Shown: one piece after another, positions 3,657 to 25,356 of the stretch
Position numbering within the stretch: the first letter of the stretch is position 1
Layout: each line of letters starts with the position of its first letter
NCBI GenBank assembly: GCA_036397855.1
Contig: DASWID010000101.1
Coordinates: 289-64,288, forward strand
Reading direction: 5' to 3'
Length of the DNA: 64,000 bases
Source of the DNA: Thermodesulfobacteriota bacterium
Lineage (GTDB): Bacteria; Desulfobacterota_D; UBA1144; Nemesobacterales; CSP1-2
Notes under the pieces: model-generated
What the model was told of the DNA's origin: nothing
The model's database searches: none
The model's input: only the letters and a program-made list of their open reading frames with translations
Program-made: the position numbers and the translations under genes

Positions 3657-6029
3657 ATGAACTCGATTTTCTTAAAATATCCTATACTACCTCCACTAAT
3701 CGGGTATATAGCTGGGATATTTATAAGTGAAAATTTGGGCTACGAATGGATTTTTATCCTTTTTATCTCACCAATACTCGGGCTGCTGTCTTTATTTTTT
3801 GCGGATCTTAGATTTCTCTTGTTTATACCCCTCGGAGTTCTGTTTTCAATAAGTCTCACCCCACCCGAAGATCACATTGCAAACTTTGTTGGAAATGAAA
3901 TTGACCTTTTGGGAACTTTATATAGATCCCCAGAGAGTAGAATAGAGGGTTCAAGGTTGTTTGTTGACGTTCGGGAGATTGTAGTAAAGGGTAAGAAAGA
4001 GTCGGCAACAGGAAAGGTGATCATTAATACTAAACAGAGAATTCGTGGTTTATCTCGAGGGGATTATGTAAGGGTTGTAGATACTGTTTTAAAGCCATAT
4101 AGAACATTTAAGAATCCCGGGAATTTTGATATCAAGCGTTATTATGGAAGGCAGAAGATATATGCCTATGGATTCGTTTCCGGAATGGATTCGATAATTT
4201 TATTTGAGCCAAAACTAACGCCTTTTTACTCTCTAAGGACAATAGATAAGGCTAGAACCAGGTTTGGGGATTTTGTAAGACACAGGTTTCCTCAATCTGA
4301 GGGAGAGATACTGAACGCAATCACAATTGGAGATCAGGGAGGAATGCCAAACGGGCTGAGAGATCTTTTTTCAGCAACTGGTATTGCTCATCTGCTCTCT
4401 ATATCCGGACTGCATGTAGGGGGTGTAGCGCTTGCTTTCTATTTAACGATAAAATGGATTCTGAAAAGGTCGGAGTATCTCTTGATTAGGTGGCAGGTCC
4501 CAAGGCTTACTGCTGGACTAACCATAATACCTTTATTCATCTACATGGCAGTAGCGGGATGTGCTACTCCCGTAGTAAGAGCATTTTTAATGATTGCGGT
4601 TTATCTTATGTCAGTGGTACTTGGTAAAGAGGAAAATAAATTGAATACGCTAGGCGCTTCTGCGTTTATAATTTTGCTGTGGCAACCATGGGCGCTTTTT
4701 CAACTCTCATTTCAACTCTCTTTTGCCGCTGTTTTGGGAATTATATTTGTCAATAGGTTTTATCCATTAAAAGTCGGTAGCTTCTCCGAAAAGATAATCT
4801 CAAGCTCTAAGATAACATTGGGTGCCTCGTTTACAACTATACCCTTAATCGTGAATTCCTTCAGTATTTTATCATTGATATCACTGCCCGCTAATTTAAT
4901 ATTTGTACCCCTGGTTGAATTCTTAATAGTTCCCCTAGGGTTGATTTCATTTTTGGTGTTCTCTGTAAATGAGTACTTAGCAATGCCATTTCTCACTCTC
5001 AATGTTTATCTGATTAGAATTCTTATCTTTGGAATAGAAAAGCTCGTTGAGATACCTTTTGCTTCTTTAACGGTTACATCTTTAGGAATTACGGGTTGGC
5101 TTATGTATATATTGATAATTCTGGTTGTTTGTTTTAAGAAGGTTTTCCCAAATCTCAAATATGTTTTGCCATTTTTTATTGTAGGGTTGATTATGGCGAT
5201 GACTATTAGTAAAGTGAGTAACTCTAAAAGTGGGTATCTAGAATTAGATTTCATAGACATTTCAAATAGGAATATAGTCTTCGTTAAGCTTCCTCAAGAA
5301 AAGACAATTCTCGTCGATGGCGGTTATTCCTTCTTCAATATGGGTGGTTATATGGAAAGAAGCGTAATTTCCCCTTTTCTTCTGAATTCTGACGTTACGA
5401 CCATCGATTATCTAATTTTAACTACATTGGACAAGGATCATTTAGAGGGTGTCAAATACTTGTTACGGAGATTTGAGGTTAAAAGACTCTGGACAAATGG
5501 AGTAAAGTTGGATGGAGAGCTCTGGAAATTGGTCAAAGGTAAGAATATAAGCTGGAAGAATCTCATGGATGAAGTTGAAAATTTTGAAATAGAGGGTGTT
5601 CGGATCGAATTTTATAAACCCAGGGGTTATTATAAAATTGCAGATTCCTCTCGACCCTATCCACTTATATTTAAGTTAACATTTGGAAACATAAATTATC
5701 TATTGGGAGAGTCTTTAGGAGACTTATCTGTGCAACGGGAATTGATCGATATTTACCATAATAGGATTCAATCGAACGTGCTATATATTCCTCAATTAAA
5801 GGGTAATTTAAGGTCATTTAATGATTTTTTGAATATCGTCTCACCAGAGATCTTGATAGTTAATCGTGGAAAAGATAGTCTTAGAAAATATCTTGATAAA
5901 AATGTGCCAAATTTCGACACTCATAGGAAGTCGAAATTCGTTGAAACTACAAAAGAGGGGATGGTTGCAATAAGTACAGACGGCAGGGAGATTAGGAAGA
6001 GGACTTTCAATAATGGCGATTTGTTGTAG
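3657..6029 (+). CDS. comEC: ComEC/Rec2 DNA-internalization competence protein with C-terminal metallo-beta-lactamase domain
   Basis: N-terminal DUF4131-like region, polytopic competence membrane domain, C-terminal MBL fold (DKDHLEG); start abuts the ispF stop. Confidence 0.8.
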   Translation: MNSIFLKYPILPPLIGYIAGIFISENLGYEWIFILFISPILGLLSLFFADLRFLLFIPLGVLFSISLTPPEDHIANFVGNEIDLLGTLYRSPESRIEGSRLFVDVREIVVKGKKESATGKVIINTKQRIRGLSRGDYVRVVDTVLKPYRTFKNPGNFDIKRYYGRQKIYAYGFVSGMDSIILFEPKLTPFYSLRTIDKARTRFGDFVRHRFPQSEGEILNAITIGDQGGMPNGLRDLFSATGIAHLLSISGLHVGGVALAFYLTIKWILKRSEYLLIRWQVPRLTAGLTIIPLFIYMAVAGCATPVVRAFLMIAVYLMSVVLGKEENKLNTLGASAFIILLWQPWALFQLSFQLSFAAVLGIIFVNRFYPLKVGSFSEKIISSSKITLGASFTTIPLIVNSFSILSLISLPANLIFVPLVEFLIVPLGLISFLVFSVNEYLAMPFLTLNVYLIRILIFGIEKLVEIPFASLTVTSLGITGWLMYILIILVVCFKKVFPNLKYVLPFFIVGLIMAMTISKVSNSKSGYLELDFIDISNRNIVFVKLPQEKTILVDGGYSFFNMGGYMERSVISPFLLNSDVTTIDYLILTTLDKDHLEGVKYLLRRFEVKRLWTNGVKLDGELWKLVKGKNISWKNLMDEVENFEIEGVRIEFYKPRGYYKIADSSRPYPLIFKLTFGNINYLLGESLGDLSVQRELIDIYHNRIQSNVLYIPQLKGNLRSFNDFLNIVSPEILIVNRGKDSLRKYLDKNVPNFDTHRKSKFVETTKEGMVAISTDGREIRKRTFNNGDLL

Positions 6030-6225
6030 ATAGCTTATAAACCAAATATTCTTTTATGTTTCTAAATGTACTGCAATCGGTAAAGGGTAAGAAGCTGGTT
6101 ACAATCAATTTATTAAGATGTAAAATACTATACAACGTAAAGGATTTGCAATTTGGGATCTTAGCTTTCGTGCTAACCCCGGAACGTTGAGGATCCGTTT
6201 TAGCTAATGGAATGGGCCATGGATC

Positions 6226-6690
6226 ATGAAAAAGATCATTCTTATTTTAATAGTTTTGGTAGTCCTGATTCTCTTTTTTTTCTTGCCCGCCGAGGACGAC
6301 ACGACCGAGATAGAATCTATATTTGATGGAGTTCTTAAAGCAGGTAAGGAAAAAGACTTAGAAGGAGTGATGGATCACTTTTCCATTAATTATAGAGATG
6401 AATACGGGGCGACCTATCCTGTTGTAAAAAACGTCATAGAGGGTTTCTTTGCCAAATATGACGGTTTTGATGGTAATTATAGCGAATTAAAGGTGTCGAT
6501 TAACGATTCAGATAAGGAAAAAATGGCAGTGGCAAACCTTGATTTTTATGTTAATGGGATCAAAACCGGCAAGTCAATTCCAATATTTGGAAATGCGGTA
6601 TTACCTGAGAACGTGACTGTTACCCTTGAGAAAAATACCTTTGGTGATTGGAAAATCAAAAATGTTGAAGGGCTGAGCATTGATGAATAG
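6226..6690 (+). CDS. hypothetical exported/membrane-anchored protein
   Basis: N-terminal hydrophobic helix; no recognisable family. Confidence 0.4.
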   Translation: MKKIILILIVLVVLILFFFLPAEDDTTEIESIFDGVLKAGKEKDLEGVMDHFSINYRDEYGATYPVVKNVIEGFFAKYDGFDGNYSELKVSINDSDKEKMAVANLDFYVNGIKTGKSIPIFGNAVLPENVTVTLEKNTFGDWKIKNVEGLSIDE

Positions 6691-6729
6691 GGCGTTTTGG
6701 CTCTAAGATGATCCGGGATCCGTCTTTTA

Positions 6730-7482
6730 TTAGTCTATATATTCTAATCTTCCCAGTATAAAATCATTCAGGACTTCTATATCGGTGTTTTGTGCTTCGT
6801 TTACGGTACCCTCAAAGATTATTCTTCCGTTGTAAAGAAAAGCAATTCTATCCGAAATTTCAAGAGCGCTCTTCACATCGTGGGTAATGATAACTCCTGT
6901 GATGCCGAATTGCCGCTGCATGTTTCTTATGAGGTGGTTTATTCTGCTGATGTTGGGAGGATCCAGGCCCGTTGTTGGCTCATCATAGAGCAAAATCTTG
7001 GGGTTCATGGCCATTGCCCTTGCAAGCCCCACCCTCTTTTTCATACCACCGCTTAGATCTGAAGGTAGTTTATCTTCAATTCCCGGAAGCCCCACAAGCT
7101 CTAAGTTTGTTGAGACAATTTCGTTGATTTCTTCTTCTGAATGTTTATTGCCCTCCCTCAGGGGATATGCAATGTTTTCGGCAACCGTAAGGGAATCGAA
7201 AAGTGCAGCGCCTTGGAAGAGCATACCGATTTTTTTTCTGACATGAACTAATTCACTCTCATCCATTGGGACTATGTTTTCATTTTCTATAACAATTTCT
7301 CCTTCATCTGGCTTCATAAGACCGGTAATCTCTTTGAGCAAAACACTTTTGCCCGATCCGCTTCCGCCCAGCACCGTAATGTTTTCGCCCTTTCTTATAG
7401 AAAGATTGACACCAGTGTGTACTTGTCTTGAATCGAATGACTTATGAACGTTTTTGAGCTCTATTATGTAATTTTCATTCAT
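6730..7482 (-). CDS. ABC transporter ATP-binding protein (MlaF/Ttg2A-like), no adjacent permease
   Basis: Walker A GGSGSGKS, ABC signature LSGGMKKRV, Walker B LLYDEP. Confidence 0.75.
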   Translation of the reverse strand: MNENYIIELKNVHKSFDSRQVHTGVNLSIRKGENITVLGGSGSGKSVLLKEITGLMKPDEGEIVIENENIVPMDESELVHVRKKIGMLFQGAALFDSLTVAENIAYPLREGNKHSEEEINEIVSTNLELVGLPGIEDKLPSDLSGGMKKRVGLARAMAMNPKILLYDEPTTGLDPPNISRINHLIRNMQRQFGITGVIITHDVKSALEISDRIAFLYNGRIIFEGTVNEAQNTDIEVLNDFILGRLEYID

Positions 7483-9864: not shown

Positions 9865-9960
9865 TTGTGTAGATTGAATCCCTGAACGTGAGTCAAGTTT
9901 TCAGAGTAACCTGAATTTCTTCTAAAGGTATTTTTTTCATCCAATATATTCATGAATTTT

Positions 9961-10011
9961 TTACTGGCGGCGGGAGGAATCGAACCTCCGACAAAGGCCT
10001 TATGAGAGCCC
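9961..10011 (-). repeat. attL: truncated copy of the tRNA-Met 3' half (nt 27-72 + 4 nt)
   Basis: Identical to 14657-14707; sequence diverges at 10012. Confidence 0.85.
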
Positions 10012-10033
10012 TTATGGGTTATTGTAACTTTCT

Positions 10034-11116
10034 TTAATCATTAAGTAATTTAGCCCTAACTAGGTGACTTGTGTTCATGTAGGGTTTATTCGGAGCGAAA
10101 TTGACGCTTTCAATGGCTCTCTTTTTATGCTCAGGTGTAGGGTGGGAGTAACGCTTGGTCATAACAATTGACCTATGCCCTAATAGCTCCTGAACGGTAA
10201 CCAGGTCAACTCCATTCATAACAAGCCTTGTAGCAATTGTGTGTCTTAAGTCATGGAACCTACAACGGGATATCTTGGCTTTATTTAAAGCAGTTTCAAA
10301 AGCACTCTTGATTTCTTTGACAGGGCTGCCTTTGTAATTAAAGACATATTCACTGGAAGCATTTTCCTGTAACTCAGTCAATGTTTGCAGTAATGTTTCG
10401 TTGATTGGTATAAATCTAAACTCAAAGTTTTTGGTATCTCTCACGGTGATGGTTCTCTGTTTTAAGTTAACGTCCTCCCATTTAAGGCCTAGAATTTCGC
10501 TTCTCCTCATGCCTGTGCTAACGGCACAAATTAGGATTGGTTTAAGGTGCGGAGCGGCTACTTCATATAGTCTTAAGAAATCCTCTTCACGTAGAATTTG
10601 CATGCGTTGGTTAGAGACCTTAAAGAACTTTACACCCTTCACGGGATTAGCACTAGCTAGACCCCACTCTATCGCTAGGTTAAACATTCTCTTAAGCACG
10701 GTTAACTCTCGATTGATATTTCCCAGCGTCTTGCCCTCATCTTTCCTTTTAGCCTTGAACTGCTCGACAGACCATGAGGTAATATCATCTATACTATGCC
10801 CTTTGAAGAATCGTAACAGTGCCTTGCATATAGTTACGCTTCTCTTATAAGAGCGATGATTTGCTTTTGAATAGTCCAAGTACTTCTCCACTAGCTTTTC
10901 AAAGCCGATTGCCGGTCTCTTGCTCTTAAGATTAAACCTGTCCTGTACCACCTCACCCATCCTTGCCTTCAATGCTTGCTCGGCTTGACCTTTGGTTATC
11001 AAAGCTGTAGAGCCTATCTTCTCTCTGATTTGTTTACCATCCGCATAATAGGCGATATACCAGCTTTTGCCTCTCTTGTAGATGCTGCCCGTACCCCACG
11101 CTCTTCGCTTAGCCAT
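10034..11116 (-). CDS. tyrosine-type site-specific integrase
   Basis: C-terminal catalytic box HDLRHT...LLGH...RYSH; N-terminal AP2/SAM-like arm-binding region. Confidence 0.9.
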   Translation of the reverse strand: MAKRRAWGTGSIYKRGKSWYIAYYADGKQIREKIGSTALITKGQAEQALKARMGEVVQDRFNLKSKRPAIGFEKLVEKYLDYSKANHRSYKRSVTICKALLRFFKGHSIDDITSWSVEQFKAKRKDEGKTLGNINRELTVLKRMFNLAIEWGLASANPVKGVKFFKVSNQRMQILREEDFLRLYEVAAPHLKPILICAVSTGMRRSEILGLKWEDVNLKQRTITVRDTKNFEFRFIPINETLLQTLTELQENASSEYVFNYKGSPVKEIKSAFETALNKAKISRCRFHDLRHTIATRLVMNGVDLVTVQELLGHRSIVMTKRYSHPTPEHKKRAIESVNFAPNKPYMNTSHLVRAKLLND

Positions 11117-11123
11117 TTATCAT

Positions 11124-11321
11124 TTACCTCCCTTTTTTAGGATCTGTTTCGATTGATACACTTTTAATTAAATTATCCTTTTCCATTGCCTGTCTTATCC
11201 AATAACGGACAAGGTCTGAGGAAGTCATTAAATTTTCTTCTGCATAGTTAGTTAAGAACTTAAATTCCTTTGGATGCAACCAGACTTGAAATAACTTTGT
11301 TCTTATTCTTTTTTCCCTCAT
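11124..11321 (-). CDS. ribbon-helix-helix DNA-binding protein (putative excisionase/regulator)
   Basis: Beta strand KLFQVWL followed by two helices as in CopG/Arc; directly upstream of int. Confidence 0.5.
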   Translation of the reverse strand: MREKRIRTKLFQVWLHPKEFKFLTNYAEENLMTSSDLVRYWIRQAMEKDNLIKSVSIETDPKKGR

Positions 11322-11434: not shown

Positions 11435-11803
11435 GTGCTATTATTTCCATGTTATATGAGTAAAAATTACGAGTCCTATAAAGAAACTTGTCACATACTA
11501 AATCAGGCAATCGGTGCTCTAGTTATTCATAGGGGAGATATAAGAATACGTCTTATAAACGCATATGTGTTTCACTTGTTTAAATTGGAAGTTGATGATT
11601 TCCCTTGTGAACTTAGAAAGCAATTTAAGTGGGTTAAATCGCAATTAATAAATGAGGGCCGTCTAAAAAAATATGTATACCGAGGTAATTTAATAGACCA
11701 ATTAAAACGGTCTCTCCACGGAAGAAGGTATAAAACACTTGAGAGGATTGCGGAAGCTATACTTGATATCCGTGCCCGATTAGGTGACTACTTAGAGAAT
11801 TAA
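11435..11803 (+). CDS. hypothetical protein (island cargo)
   Basis: ORF only; no recognisable motif. Confidence 0.35.
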   Translation: MLLFPCYMSKNYESYKETCHILNQAIGALVIHRGDIRIRLINAYVFHLFKLEVDDFPCELRKQFKWVKSQLINEGRLKKYVYRGNLIDQLKRSLHGRRYKTLERIAEAILDIRARLGDYLEN

Positions 11804-11911: not shown

Positions 11912-12475
11912 TTATGAATGCCTGCCTTTAGGGTCTTCGGGTATGGGTATAGGATGTAACTTTATTTTGGTTCTAATTAGAGTTCGTGGTTTATGTATGT
12001 CATTCCAATTCTCCATAATAAACTTAGAGTCAGATTTAGTATTTACATAACCTTCATGATGTGACGCACAATCTATTGAGACTCTTAATGCATCTTCAAT
12101 TTCTGGGTCTAGATATAAGCAATTTTCAGAAAGCCAATCTTGCATCTCAAAGTAAGCTTTATTTAGTTCATCTCGGTTATCATATATTTTGCTCGTAACT
12201 TTGTACCAGTGAGCGTATGCTTTTTGGTGTGCATCTACTATCTTGTCATATGCTATTAACTCTAACTTTTCTTTTCTTTGTCTTTCTGAGATAAGGTAGT
12301 TTGAAAATGAAGTGACCATTGCTCCAATTATTACCCCTAATAATCCAACGATAGCAACATTATCTAATTTTAACAATACTAATATGAGCCAAGCAACTGT
12401 AAATCCTAATGCAAATGCTATTATATTGGAGATGTTTGTAACTATCTTCTCTCTAATCAAAGTTATAATTTTCAT
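11912..12475 (-). CDS. 2-TM membrane protein, candidate SLATT-like effector
   Basis: Two N-terminal TM helices then a ~120-aa soluble helical domain; divergent from the TIR gene. Confidence 0.5.
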   Translation of the reverse strand: MKIITLIREKIVTNISNIIAFALGFTVAWLILVLLKLDNVAIVGLLGVIIGAMVTSFSNYLISERQRKEKLELIAYDKIVDAHQKAYAHWYKVTSKIYDNRDELNKAYFEMQDWLSENCLYLDPEIEDALRVSIDCASHHEGYVNTKSDSKFIMENWNDIHKPRTLIRTKIKLHPIPIPEDPKGRHS

Positions 12476-12545
12476 ATTAACATTCTAAGATTTTATTTAT
12501 TTGATTTCTAGGTGTAATATGCTGCTCCCCAGTAGCCATGTAGTG

Positions 12546-12582
12546 GAGCTTTTTTCACGAGGCACTTATCTTTTTGTTATAT
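12546..12582 (+). repeat. 37-bp perfect direct repeat, copy 1 (gagcttttttcacgaggcacttatctttttgttatat)
   Basis: Identical to 14194-14230. Confidence 0.9.
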
Positions 12583-12844
12583 GCCTTATACAGGCGACGT
12601 AACTCTTTTCGTTGCGACTTCAATAATGCTTACGTTTTATGGTTTCAGGAACACGATGGGCTTTTTGGGGTGTTGTTCCGTATTTTCTCATAGTTACGTG
12701 CTTTTGACGTAAAGGGATATTTTTAAGTATACTCCTATACAAGTAAAAGGGTGATAGGTGTTTGCATAACACCACATACTGGGGGCGTTTATACGAACTT
12801 TAGTTCGTCTAATTATTAGTTAGCCATAAAATCGTAAACATTGG

Positions 12845-13492
12845 ATGATGATAATGAATGCACCAAAGTGTTTCATTAGTTATTCATGGGATAATGATAA
12901 TCATAAAGATTGGGTTAGATTTTTAGCTTCTGAGTTAAGAGCTAGAGGGATCGATGCAAGACTTGATCAGTGGGATACTAAGCTGGGAATAAACCTTCCA
13001 GAGTATATGGAAACCTCAGTTCGTGAATCTGAATACGTCTTACTTATATGCACACCCTTGTTTGCTGAAAAAGCGAATAAGGGTTCTGGGGGTGTAGGCT
13101 ATGAAAAAACAATTGTAACTGGCGAAATATTTTCTGGTGTATCATCCAAGACAAAATTTATCCCTGTTCTTCGTAGTGGTAGCGAATCTGAAGCCATTCC
13201 TTCGTATCTCAGGGGTAAATTTTATATCGATTTTAGAAATGATCAGAATTTTAATGATTCAATTGATAAATTAATAAGAAATATTTTTGATGCTCCAGAA
13301 CACCCACCTCCACCGATTGGAAATCGGCCAAAATTTAATACACAGAGTGCTGGAGTGCGATCGGCACAGAAGGAGGTTCACTTTGACATTACGCGCTTTA
13401 GTAATGCATTTGAATATGCTATAAGCTACAATGGGTTAAGAATGGGAAGAGATGAGGCGCGTCAATGGGCTCTACGAAGATTGGAAGAATAA
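12845..13492 (+). CDS. TIR-like (SEFIR/TIR_2-type) domain protein
   Basis: N-terminal FISYSWDND...WV.FLA.ELR.RGID..LDQWD...YVLLICTP...GGVGYE pattern typical of bacterial TIR/SEFIR folds; ~70-aa C-terminal extension. Confidence 0.7.
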   Translation: MMIMNAPKCFISYSWDNDNHKDWVRFLASELRARGIDARLDQWDTKLGINLPEYMETSVRESEYVLLICTPLFAEKANKGSGGVGYEKTIVTGEIFSGVSSKTKFIPVLRSGSESEAIPSYLRGKFYIDFRNDQNFNDSIDKLIRNIFDAPEHPPPPIGNRPKFNTQSAGVRSAQKEVHFDITRFSNAFEYAISYNGLRMGRDEARQWALRRLEE

Positions 13493-13644
13493 ACAATAGT
13501 TCGCTAACATTTGCTTCAGCCGGCCCCTAAGCGGCGGCGCGATTTTCGGGTTTGCTGGTTTCGGCACAGTTATGTTCATTTTATACGCTTGAGTTGTGAA
13601 AATTCGCGGCGGCTGAGCAAAAGTATCTGGAAGAATACTTAAAT

Positions 13645-14064
13645 TTGGTCGGAAAGGTACTAATTGACTTTGAATACATTGAACTCGCACTGAAACTCTA
13701 TATCGCTGAAACGTATGCCACTATCTCCTCTCGACTAGAGGGGATCGTAACCTTCAAATATGGCTGGGAAGATGTAGAAAACGAACCACTTGACAGGCTC
13801 CTGAATCAATTCTCAAAGATCAGTTCCGATCATCAGCTCGTTAAAGGTCTTGGTCTTCTTCAAAAGGAGCGGAATAAGTTGGCGCATCAGGCATACGTCT
13901 TAACGTTGGAAGAACAGTCAGATCGTGACCACCTTGAAAAGGAATATGCACGTATTACAAAGCCAAAGTCCAAGACTAAGGCGTTAGTTGTGAGAACGAT
14001 GGAAGCGTGCAAAGTGCTCGAAAGTCCATTCTCGAAAACAACAAGAAAAAGTGGGAATACGTGA
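13645..14064 (+). CDS. hypothetical small protein with HEPN-like Rx4H motif (ERNKLAHQ)
   Basis: ORF starts at a TTG (no ATG available); Rx4H motif mid-protein; weak call. Confidence 0.35.
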   Translation: MVGKVLIDFEYIELALKLYIAETYATISSRLEGIVTFKYGWEDVENEPLDRLLNQFSKISSDHQLVKGLGLLQKERNKLAHQAYVLTLEEQSDRDHLEKEYARITKPKSKTKALVVRTMEACKVLESPFSKTTRKSGNT

Positions 14065-14180
14065 CACATCTTGACTATTTAAAATTATGCTAATGAGTTA
14101 AATCTATAAATATGTGTATATCTAAATAGATACTGTTTGTTATTGCTAGCATTAGCCATAATACCCTATTATTGCCCCCA

Positions 14181-14203
14181 GCTCGAGGCATTCGAGCTTT
14201 TTT
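14181..14203 (+). terminator. rho-independent terminator (gctcgag-gcat-tcgagc + T6)
   Basis: Perfect 6-bp stem, 5-nt loop and a U-tract; overlaps the start of 37-bp repeat copy 2. Confidence 0.6.
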
Positions 14204-14230
14204 CACGAGGCACTTATCTTTTTGTTATAT
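14194..14230 (+). repeat. 37-bp perfect direct repeat, copy 2
   Basis: Identical to 12546-12582. Confidence 0.9.
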
Positions 14231-14656
14231 ATTAATATTATTGTCTATTAAAAATAGCGACCTCTCCGGGGCAGGGATATACCCCTTTAAAGCACGCTAC
14301 GCTGACCGAGACGAGCCTCTATCCCGGTGGCTAATAGTAAATAGTGATAAAAATAAATTAGTAAGTTTAGAATGCCGTTGAATCCGGAGTTATCTTTCTT
14401 GGCAAAAGCACTCTACTTTGTGTAGCTTCGCCTTTAGGTAACTTAACTTGTCGTCCTCTAAGTTTCTTGATTACTTATTACATGAAGGAGGGGTACATAT
14501 CTGTGTTCAATATGTGTTTGTAGTGTGTTTATTCTATGGAAAAACCTACCATATAGGAGAAAGATATTGAAAAGTATTGAAACTGGGAATATAGAGGCTT
14601 ATTTCTCTTAACTTCTTGAAATCAAATAAGAATCTTTTGTTTATAATGGGTTATTT

Positions 14657-14707
14657 TTACTGGCGGCGGGAGGAATCGAACCTCCGACAAAGGCCTTATG
14701 AGAGCCC
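14657..14707 (-). repeat. attR: 3' half of the intact tRNA-Met plus 4 flanking nt
   Basis: Identical to 9961-10011. Confidence 0.85.
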
Positions 14708-14732
14708 TGCTCTACCTCTGAGCTACGCCGCC
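14661..14732 (-). tRNA. tRNA-Met (anticodon CAT)
   Basis: Cloverleaf folded by hand: acceptor GGCGGCG/CGCCGCC, D-arm GCTC..GAGC, anticodon loop CTCATAA, T-loop TTCGATT; CCA not encoded; anticodon stem has two G-U pairs. Confidence 0.8.
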
Positions 14733-14899
14733 AAGGTTAGTATTTGGAGTATGTTTCAAGCCAACATAAGGATATTTAACAGTTTTTCTACGCGGGGTTT
14801 ATTTTTATATGTTGATCTGGTCAGTATATCATGGCGGGTCTAACTTTCAAGACGAAACTAGCTTTTTTGTAACAAATTGGGGGTATTAGAAGCGAAATA

Positions 14900-21592: not shown

Positions 21593-21859
21593 GTGAGACA
21601 TGATTCGTTAAGCAGAGCTTTTCACGGAGCTTGTGAGAGGTCTAATATCAAAGGCTTGAGATTCCATGACCTAAGGCATACTTGTGCAACAAGATTAGTA
21701 GAAGCTGGGGTTCCACTTCATACTGTTTCGAAACTACTAGGTCATTCTACAATTAGGATGACCGAAAGATATAGCCAACCCGAAGAAAGTTTGAAGGGAG
21801 CAGTCGAAATTCTGGAAAAACTAGAAACTCGCTTTAGCCAATCGAAAAGAATTATTTGA
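21593..21859 (+). pseudogene. tyrosine integrase C-terminal fragment 1
   Basis: RFHDLRHTCATRLVEAGVPLHTVSKLLGHSTIRMTERYSQ without an N-terminal domain. Confidence 0.8.
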
Positions 21860-25040: not shown

Positions 25041-25280
25041 TTTATTAAGCTCGAAACGCAGCAAAGAACTTTTAATTAATTTCGATCATTGTGAGTTTTT
25101 TATTTATTTCGAAATAAGTTGGTATCTAGTTTTTGTATTGCATTTTTCTTAGCTTCTTGCTTTGTGAGGCTCAGATATTTATCTTGAAAACTATAATAAC
25201 TCAAGAAAGTTTGTAGCCAAATCTGTAGCCCATTGAAATTGATGAGGAGGCGATAGGACGTAACCCCCTGATTTTATTGG

Positions 25281-25356
25281 TGGAGATGAGGGGATTCGAA
25301 CCCCCGACCTCCGCCTTGCGAAGGCGGCGCTCTCCCAAACTGAGCTACATCCCCAC
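25281..25356 (-). tRNA. tRNA-Ala (anticodon CGC)
   Basis: GGGGATG acceptor with G3-U70, anticodon loop TTCGCAA, T-loop TTCGAAT, CCA encoded. Confidence 0.85.

Follow-up and report, generated by a model that had tools for sequence, protein, structure and literature searches.

A genomic island at a tRNA-Met gene

The window, meaning the whole 64,000-nucleotide stretch of DNA analyzed here, contains a 4.7-kb island whose integration target is a tRNA-Met (CAT) gene at positions 14660-14733 of the minus strand (Rfam tRNA, 69.3 bits), the sole match in an Rfam scan of the island. The island ends are marked by a perfect 55-nt repeat pair with a spacing of 4696 nt, the proximal att site lying within the tRNA-Met (14654-14708) and the distal one copying the 3' part of this tRNA with 100% identity (9958-10012). 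Just inside the distal site, a tyrosine integrase of 360 amino acids is encoded on the minus strand (10034-11116; Phage_integrase, 1.3e-35; phrog_1, 1.1e-76), and an integrase together with direct repeats made by a tRNA 3' end is the pattern of a tRNA-integrated genomic island. The integrase adjoins a gene for a 65-amino-acid protein (11124-11321, minus strand), possibly a ribbon-helix-helix excisionase or regulator, as suggested by weak matches that all fall under the cut-offs (DUF6290, 0.057; RelB_antitoxin, 0.0093). A further cargo ORF on the plus strand (11435-11803), of 122 amino acids when translated mechanically and 115 in public gene calls, had no match in family searches.

The remaining cargo consists of three ORFs in a divergent layout, with a 187-amino-acid ORF on the minus strand (11912-12475), a 215-amino-acid ORF on the plus strand (12845-13492), and a small ORF downstream of the latter. 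The earlier note on this DNA had described this layout correctly and had read it as a new antiphage trio, composed of a two-transmembrane-helix (2TM) effector, a TIR/SEFIR-like protein, and a small HEPN-like protein with an Rx4H motif, set in an integrase-bearing island and bracketed by 37-bp repeats. The island is real, but its limits are the 55-nt tRNA-Met repeats, which are separate from the 37-bp repeats. The latter are also real and perfect (left copy, 12546-12582; right copy, 14194-14230), with two copies in the window versus none expected from shuffled sequences; they enclose only the 215-amino-acid ORF and the small ORF, however, and leave the 2TM gene outside. We rejected the reading of the 37-mer as a dispersed repeat, given its mere two copies in the window and its sharp edges, as well as a relationship to the tRNA att site, since it has no similarity to the 55-mer.

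Inside the bracketed module, a promoter-like site (TTGACG-18-TATACT, 12704-12733, plus strand), identified by consensus match only (10 of 12 positions), lies about 110 nt upstream of the 215-amino-acid ORF, and a terminator-like hairpin with a T-run (14180-14203, plus strand) marks the module's right edge, overlapping the right 37-mer. Promoter-like site, gene, and terminator-like hairpin form a self-contained unit within the 37-bp repeats; no strong terminator was found between the 215-amino-acid ORF and the small ORF. The island is 99.96 to 100% identical across eight contigs from seven metagenome samples, among which there was no variant lacking either the module or the island; data sets with this population include JGI 3300031965 and 3300031949 and ENA ERZ27256875, ERZ27256989, and ERZ27256991. 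In its tyrosine integrase, small adjoining gene, duplicated tRNA 3' end serving as att sites, and accessory cargo, it resembles tRNA-targeting defense islands, from which it differs in its very small size (4.7 kb) and in the internal 1648-bp module with its own perfect 37-bp repeats.

The SEFIR protein and its C-terminal repeat

The 215-amino-acid protein (212 amino acids if translation starts at 12854) clearly belongs, judged by profile and structure-sequence matches, to the known single-gene defense family bSEFIR. Its SEFIR domain spans approximately residues 7 to 157 (12863-13315). The PADLOC bSEFIR profile, run as the earlier note had proposed, matches the protein with an E value of 2.9e-75 (252.6 bits), and Pfam recovers both TIR_2 (8.2e-20) and SEFIR (6.7e-15, residues 8 to 140, 56.1 bits versus a cut-off of 23), bearing out the assignment to the TIR/SEFIR-like proteins, a defense family here carried on an integrase island. 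The selection rule for bSEFIR used by Millman et al. demands a SEFIR match better than the TIR match by HHsearch. In Pfam hmmscan TIR_2 scores above SEFIR (72 versus 56 bits); against solved structures, the SEFIR domain of Bacillus cereus (5y8e) is matched over residues 7 to 157 at 7e-25 and 91 bits, versus 4e-3 and 19.8 bits for the best TIR domain. We collected 248 homologues; the 25 invariant residues of the family include D41, Q42, W43, G82-G85, E87, and K88. The alignment with the B. cereus domain (5Y8E/5Y8F) covers the whole domain, including the FISYSW, LDxW, and GGVGxE motifs; that structure differs in showing the domain alone, which was studied as a module for interaction, and is silent on defense.

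Downstream of the SEFIR domain, the protein ends in one 37-amino-acid repeat (residues 180 to 215, 13382-13489). One such C-terminal repeat is present in 20 of 200 SEFIR relatives (median length, 215 amino acids), and others carry two to five copies and fall on a regular length ladder; by these comparisons, the window protein is complete rather than truncated. The PADLOC match covers positions 33 to 218 of the 412-position profile, and close relatives likewise end at positions 203 to 290; the profile's extended C-terminal part (approximately positions 219 to 412) found no match in the window protein, which has the single 37-amino-acid repeat instead. Given that the match is limited in this way and that the experimentally tested bSEFIR protein is longer, this short form with its one repeat may be missing a sensor and may not provide defense alone. 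We also considered that the protein could be a bSEFIR cut short, with the small ORF as its missing C-terminal half, and we rejected this because the small ORF has no match to the bSEFIR profile and belongs to a family of its own, and because one-repeat relatives of about 215 amino acids are many.

bSEFIR from Bacillus sp. NIO-1130 was described by Millman et al. in 2022 as a single-gene defense against phi29 that is abolished by D40A, in a family enriched in defense islands (10.1101/2022.05.11.491447), and NAD+ depletion via the N-terminal SEFIR domain has been reported since (10.1101/2024.02.11.579819). The window protein resembles it in its N-terminal SEFIR domain, which the profile matches very strongly, in standing alone, in lying on mobile or defense-type DNA, and in belonging to a family that spans many bacterial and archaeal phyla; it differs in its length of only 215 amino acids, in the one repeat that follows SEFIR domain and linker, in the unmatched profile positions 219 to 412, and in that its defense and NADase functions are predicted. 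By analogy with this family literature, phage infection would activate the SEFIR protein, probably by SEFIR-SEFIR self-association, upon which the domain would cleave NAD+ to ADP-ribose and nicotinamide, and the loss of NAD+ would starve the phage in an abortive type of defense. The invariant Glu87 in GGVGYEK is a candidate catalytic residue, and Asp41 in LDQWD, invariant in 50 relatives, is a candidate equivalent of the interface residue D40 whose mutation kills defense in Bacillus.

Thoeris and TIR-SLATT systems share with the window protein a TIR-superfamily domain in antiphage immunity and NAD+ chemistry. In contrast to them, the island has no ThsA, SIR2, Macro, or SLATT partner (none of the six island proteins has a ThsA-like match), the window protein matches ThsB profiles only at an E value of 0.044, and the 2TM protein encoded next to it neither shows a SLATT signature nor is conserved as a neighbor. 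The earlier note had remarked on the missing SIR2 or Macro partner; the absence holds, but it is no anomaly, since bSEFIR is described as a single-gene NAD+-depleting system (10.1101/2022.05.11.491447; 10.1101/2024.02.11.579819).

The neighboring 2TM gene and the small HEPN-like ORF

The 187-amino-acid ORF encodes an orphan protein with two predicted N-terminal transmembrane helices and a helical C-terminal domain of about 120 amino acids. Its family comprises only four clusters, and a structure model (pLDDT, 67.5) gave generic matches to four-helix bundles. The suggestion that it could be a SLATT protein was not upheld, as family searches returned no SLATT match.

The small ORF is a remnant of an HEPN-like cassette-type gene (13609-14064, plus strand), with DNA homology to intact 148-amino-acid relatives over 13611-14038. 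The position of the ATG in these relatives reads GCG in the window copy (13609-13611), an in-frame TGA lies upstream at 13597, and the loss of 10 nt near the 3' end frameshifts the last ∼17 codons. The sole start is a TTG at 13645, from which the ORF (13645-14064) runs through 139 codons without a stop; public annotations list it as a gene (P0121). The ORF, and only the ORF, is 83 to 84% identical at the DNA level to intact genes in contigs of 50 to 59% GC, and its GC3 of 0.447 contrasts with values of 0.273 for the SEFIR gene and 0.266 for the 2TM gene. From these sequence features, we read it as a decaying copy of an HEPN-like cassette gene from a GC-richer donor. Other family members are also broken (P0125 and P0126). 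The window copy keeps E25, R88, N89, and H93 (RNKLAH), and its dN/dS ratio of 0.37 to 0.42 is slightly above that of intact-copy pairs (0.30).

The family, with 455 cluster representatives, is HEPN-like in several respects. In 83 diverse members, E25, R88, and H93 never vary and N89 and A92 hardly do (RNxxAH), and the weak Pfam matches that recur are to HEPN families, namely HEPN_RiboL-PSP in 10 of the 83 (best, 2.8e-5) and the Csm6 HEPN in 6. Like the small proteins of these families and the HEPN toxins of toxin-antitoxin systems, its members are about 150 amino acids long and predicted to be all-helical, and they have the invariant arginine and histidine of the Rx4H motif, a nearly invariant asparagine and alanine, and an invariant glutamate in helix 1. 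They differ in that no curated family reaches threshold, that an antitoxin partner such as MNT was not seen, and that they occur as single ORFs, with the window copy damaged in addition. The match of the window copy to Cas_Csm6_HEPN (E value, 0.058) is under the cut-off, searches of PDB sequences with the small ORF and the family profile yielded no significant match, and an AlphaFold2 model of the family built from six sequences (pLDDT, 57.5) found, at this low confidence, no Foldseek match in the PDB below an E value of 1.8. The description of a small HEPN-like protein with an Rx4H motif (ERNKLAHQ) thus stands for the family, but the window copy is not intact, given the change of ATG to GCG and the 10-nt frameshift.

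The genomic contexts of the family are varied and resemble cassette arrays, and neither SEFIR nor 2TM genes were present in the 38 loci with HEPN-family genes. A strict attC core (GTTRRRY) lies downstream of family genes in 10 of 36 loci versus 4.9 expected, which is no more than suggestive; the cassette reading accordingly leans mainly on co-orientation, unrelated neighbors, and hairpin spacers. A tblastn search of plasmids with one family member gave no match. Taken as a widespread family, these proteins of about 150 amino acids appear to travel as single-ORF cassettes.

A probable stand-alone defense gene with passengers

We consider it likely that the 4.7-kb tRNA-Met island carries one recognizable defense gene, a stand-alone bSEFIR-type gene, with the small ORF and the 2TM gene as independent passengers. 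Across 80 genome loci of SEFIR relatives, profile searches (E value of ≤10) detected no 2TM or HEPN-family relatives within 6 kb, and no neighbor family recurred, showing that the habit of SEFIR genes is to stand alone without a conserved partner; integrases lie near several of them. Small proteins with two to four transmembrane helices are not enriched beside SEFIR either (7 of 145 immediate neighbors versus 32 of 493 distant genes). Conversely, the two informative contigs with 2TM relatives, L006 (a tRNA-Thr island) and L007, contain no SEFIR gene in the short sequence available. The proposed trio is therefore not supported, having no co-occurrence in either the 80 SEFIR or the 38 HEPN-family loci, and we read the 2TM protein as orphan island cargo, independent of SEFIR.

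A system that relies on SEFIR as signal generator or sensor, with the membrane protein and an RNase serving as effectors, is exceedingly improbable in this light: the genes do adjoin on a mobile island, SEFIR is a defense domain, and RNKLAH is kept in the small ORF, but the lack of co-occurrence in both surveys is joined by a 2TM gene outside the bracketed module, SEFIR-free 2TM relatives in the short available sequence, and an HEPN copy with a lost start codon, a frameshift, and a foreign codon composition. A smaller version, with the one-repeat SEFIR protein and the divergent 2TM protein as its lineage-specific membrane effector, fares little better and seems to us very unlikely. The two genes form a divergent pair with a 369-nt shared intergenic region, a short SEFIR protein could require a partner, and another one-repeat SEFIR gene (L010) adjoins an unrelated 145-amino-acid 2TM protein; set against this are the 2TM homologues found near 0 of 80 SEFIR genes, the lack of enrichment of small membrane proteins, the SEFIR-free short sequences of L006 and L007, the missing match to SLATT or another effector family, and the repeat boundary between the two genes. 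In its boldest form, which we hold to be very unlikely indeed, the one-repeat SEFIR protein would be blind to phage alone and would have recruited the 2TM protein as membrane effector or sensor, yielding a new minimal two-gene SEFIR-membrane system; if so, the absence of the pairing elsewhere would mark a very recent, lineage-specific association.

Two further readings concern the small ORF and the role of the SEFIR protein. Given that the catalytic-type residues are kept, the small ORF could still be translated from the TTG at 13645. It would then be cotranscribed with SEFIR, from which no strong terminator separates it, and would be an independent RNase toxin or second defense gene, so that two defense genes would be stacked. 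Its 139 open, publicly annotated codons and a dN/dS ratio that is not neutral are consistent with this, but it has lost the ATG together with the opening 12 residues of helix 1, it carries E in place of the nearly invariant Q22, the C-terminal tail is replaced through the 10-nt deletion, the TTG has no obvious ribosome-binding site ahead of it, and broken copies occur elsewhere in the family; we regard a functional product as unlikely. Highly improbable, finally, is a SEFIR protein acting here as a generic protein-protein interaction adaptor without an immune role. Such a role was hypothesized by Yang et al. (2018) for bacterial SEFIR domains, as summarized in 10.1101/2022.05.11.491447, and the window protein does not have the long C-terminal part that the tested one has; against it stand the enrichment of the family in defense islands and the experimental defense by one member (10.1101/2022.05.11.491447), the NAD+ depletion reported for the SEFIR domain (10.1101/2024.02.11.579819), and a location on a mobile island, which, together with the integrases close to several relatives, fits accessory defense cargo.

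Under the stand-alone reading, the locus is to be annotated as a bSEFIR-type single-gene defense module on a tRNA-Met island rather than as a new multigene system: the SEFIR family is already described, and the locus adds a member to it, not a new three-gene system. Two by-products are of possible use to specialists, the HEPN-like cassette family and the repeat series of the SEFIR proteins. In the latter, a large bacterial and archaeal SEFIR clade varies only in the copy number of the 37-amino-acid repeat (one to five), offering a natural series with which to probe the role of the noncatalytic part in sensing or oligomerization.

The 215-aa SEFIR protein and its C-terminal repeat

The 215-aa ORF at 12845-13492 (+), which is transcribed divergently from a 187-aa ORF, was assigned a TIR/SEFIR-like fold in the earlier note, and database searches bear this out: the protein matches Pfam TIR_2 (8.2e-20) and SEFIR (6.7e-15), both exceeding the cut-offs, as well as the PADLOC bSEFIR model (2.9e-75) and a corresponding PHROG (8.1e-49). 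Its residues 7-157 match the solved SEFIR domain from Bacillus cereus (5y8e, 7e-25), and solved TIR domains reach 4e-3 at best. A search of a large protein collection yielded 248 relatives at E ≤ 1e-3 that span many bacterial and archaeal phyla, the nearest ones outside the window population being about 50% identical. When 50 relatives are aligned, 25 residues never vary, including FxxYSW, D41-Q42-W43 and G82-G83-V84-G85-x-E87-K88. On the basis of these similarities, we assign the protein to the known bSEFIR family; in the Bacillus member tested, defense is abolished by D40A, and proteins of this type are enriched in defense islands (10.1101/2022.05.11.491447). Given that bSEFIR is a single-gene family, a gene with neither SIR2 nor Macro as partner, previously taken as unusual, represents its normal state.

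The PADLOC bSEFIR profile comprises 412 positions, of which the window protein matches 33-218. This short match raises the question of whether the gene is truncated. Residues 180-215 (13382-13489) correspond to a single copy of a 37-aa repeat unit (consensus DFDFERFKELYDFAYSSDGLNLSRDDAEEWALEWIEK) that is present in 73 of 200 SEFIR proteins, the remaining 127 having other C termini. Protein length follows copy number in a clean ladder, with median lengths of 215 aa for one copy (20 proteins), 256 aa for two (25 proteins), 303.5 aa for three (14 proteins), 333 aa for four (10 proteins) and 370.5 aa for five (4 proteins). The one-copy relatives thus have the length of the window protein, and in longer relatives, too, the match is limited to the first 203-290 profile positions; together, these observations rule out a truncated gene. 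The repeat-bearing subclade includes both bacterial and archaeal SEFIR proteins (among P0002-P0120 and loci L008-L087), and sequence comparison identifies the window protein as a full-length, minimal member and a candidate for defense on its own, the noncatalytic part of the subclade being a variable tandem repeat.

The tRNA-Met island and the module inside it

A 55-nt perfect direct repeat recovered by a repeat search (9958-10012 and 14654-14708) corresponds to the 3' part of a tRNA-Met predicted by ARAGORN (14660-14733, -) and therefore delimits an island of 4.7 kb. Besides the genes discussed here, the island contains a tyrosine integrase (10034-11116; Phage_integrase, 1.3e-35), an adjoining 65-aa gene and a 115-122-aa ORF without family assignment. 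The same island occurs in 8 contigs from 7 metagenome samples, with 99.96-100% identity and in the same chromosomal context. An integrase-bearing island with tRNA-Met repeats that carries a bSEFIR gene agrees with the proposal of mobile defense cargo. The stretch of ∼420 nt that separates the tRNA-Met from the SEFIR module (14231-14653) lacks a noteworthy ORF and matches nothing in Rfam. Outside the island, public gene calls on identical contigs place a PIN-domain gene upstream (about 1912-2909), an 88-aa integrase fragment (about 21593-21859) and an AbiEii-family gene a few kilobases past the island (from about 22318 upward), and a tRNA-Ala lies at 25278-25354. The integrase fragment, AbiEii and PIN genes may represent toxin-antitoxin loci or what is left of a second island.

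A second perfect direct repeat, 37 nt long and also found by repeat search (12546-12582 and 14194-14230), shows no relation to the 55-nt att repeat of the island. It occurs exactly twice in the 64-kb window and in none of 100 shuffles, similarity ends sharply at its edges, and its left copy carries one SNP in 5 of the 8 population contigs. The ORFs, tRNA, island and repeats described in the earlier note are all present, but the 37-mers do not bracket the whole trio: between them lie the 215-aa gene and the small ORF alone, and the 2TM gene falls outside. In the enclosed DNA, a promoter-like site (TTGACG-18-TATACT, 12704-12733) precedes the SEFIR gene by about 110 nt, and the right edge of the module is formed by a hairpin that resembles a terminator, carries a T-run (14180-14203) and overlaps the right 37-mer, so that the 1,648-bp unit looks self-contained. 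It resembles an expression module inserted into an older island, and its perfect, sharp-edged repeats are consistent with the trace expected from site-specific or duplicative insertion; no empty site was found in the 8 population contigs.

A damaged HEPN-like gene

For the small ORF (TTG at 13645 to 14064 in the mechanical ORF list), a word-indexed search gave six relatives only, and an exhaustive profile search gave 455 cluster representatives at E ≤ 1e-3 and 213 at E ≤ 1e-10, nearly all of 130-170 aa. Across 83 diverse members, which share the signature FQxIEExLK...RNxxAH, E25, R88 and H93 are invariant and Q22, N89 and A92 nearly so. Matches to HEPN_RiboL-PSP (10 of 83, best 2.8e-5) and Csm6 HEPN (6 of 83) are weak, as are single ones to Abi_2 and HEPN_MAE_28990, and the structure model was of too low quality to be informative. 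Given the invariant residues and the fact that the recurring Pfam families are HEPN families only, the earlier HEPN guess can be accepted with moderate confidence for the family as a whole. The genes of this family (L096-L130, L001, L003 and L094) sit among co-oriented, mutually unrelated ORFs separated by spacers of 60-120 nt with imperfect hairpins, often ending in ...CGTTRRR. These surroundings resemble integron gene-cassette arrays, with only a modest enrichment of the strict GTTRRRY core (10 of 36 loci versus 4.9 expected).

The window copy is 74-79% identical in amino acids to intact 148-aa relatives, whose ATG-GCT-GAG reads GCG-GCT-GAG here. Four codons before the lost ATG position there is an in-frame TGA, and the first possible start is a TTG twelve codons in. 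The nearly invariant Q22 is replaced by E. Close to the 3' end, 10 nt are deleted, which substitutes a different sequence for the final ∼17 residues; the tail of the relatives is still readable in another frame. This damage points to a probable remnant, and we consider it quite unlikely that the ORF is still functional. Its dN/dS of 0.37-0.42, versus 0.30 between intact copies, does not prove neutrality. DNA identity to the relatives (83-84%) is confined to 13611-14038, their contigs have a GC content of 50-59% versus 38% here, and GC3 is 0.447 in the small ORF versus 0.273 in the SEFIR gene and 0.266 in the 2TM gene. A contig of 58% GC (L096, Ga0214473_10203599) carries an intact gene 99% identical to relative P0124, and the JGI sample it comes from also yielded a contig with the window organism's island (L005, Ga0214473_10051220), so that donor-like and recipient-like copies coexist in one community. 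Taken together, these features indicate a separate, fairly recent acquisition.

Neighborhoods of the three genes

The 187-aa 2TM protein (11912-12475, -) has two N-terminal hydrophobic helices, with positive charges preceding the first and following the second, a pattern that suggests a cytoplasmic location for its ∼120-aa helical C-terminal domain. It has no significant family in Pfam, NCBIfam, PADLOC or PHROGs, and its own family is tiny (4 clusters among 5.8 billion proteins). One relative (L006, 70-1331; 64% identical) is preceded, at a distance of about 600 nt, by a tRNA-Thr and by a 73-aa ORF with weak similarity to the N terminus of the window integrase (pairwise E of 5e-4), suggesting that the gene may be a recurrent cargo of tRNA-linked islands. 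Another (L007) follows a peptidoglycan-binding-like protein fragment, as judged by eye. Neither of these short sequences contains a SEFIR gene.

We surveyed the surroundings of SEFIR relatives at 80 genome loci, to a distance of at most 6 kb in either direction. Neither single-sequence queries (2TM protein, small ORF, 122-aa ORF and 65-aa protein; E ≤ 10) nor profiles of the 2TM and small-ORF families gave a match there. Clustering of the 448 neighboring ORFs revealed no recurrent SEFIR neighbor, the largest groups being integrases and a UvrA-like protein (5 loci each). Small proteins with 2-4 predicted TM helices were not enriched beside SEFIR, accounting for 7 of 145 genes there versus 32 of 493 at least three genes away. 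Among the 7 of 80 loci with such a neighbor, the only one-repeat SEFIR locus inspected was L010 from a Clostridia MAG, where the protein encoded directly after a 215-aa, 50% identical SEFIR protein has 145 aa and two TM helices and is unrelated (6001-7181). Conversely, the 38 loci carrying small-ORF family members contain no SEFIR or 2TM relative. The three genes were proposed to form a new anti-phage system, but the absence of both partner families near SEFIR, and of SEFIR near the HEPN family, argues against a three-component unit, and the 2TM protein is tied to SEFIR by adjacency alone. The locus is instead the known single-gene system bSEFIR in a minimal one-repeat form, with an orphan membrane protein and a decaying cassette gene of the HEPN type as neighbors.
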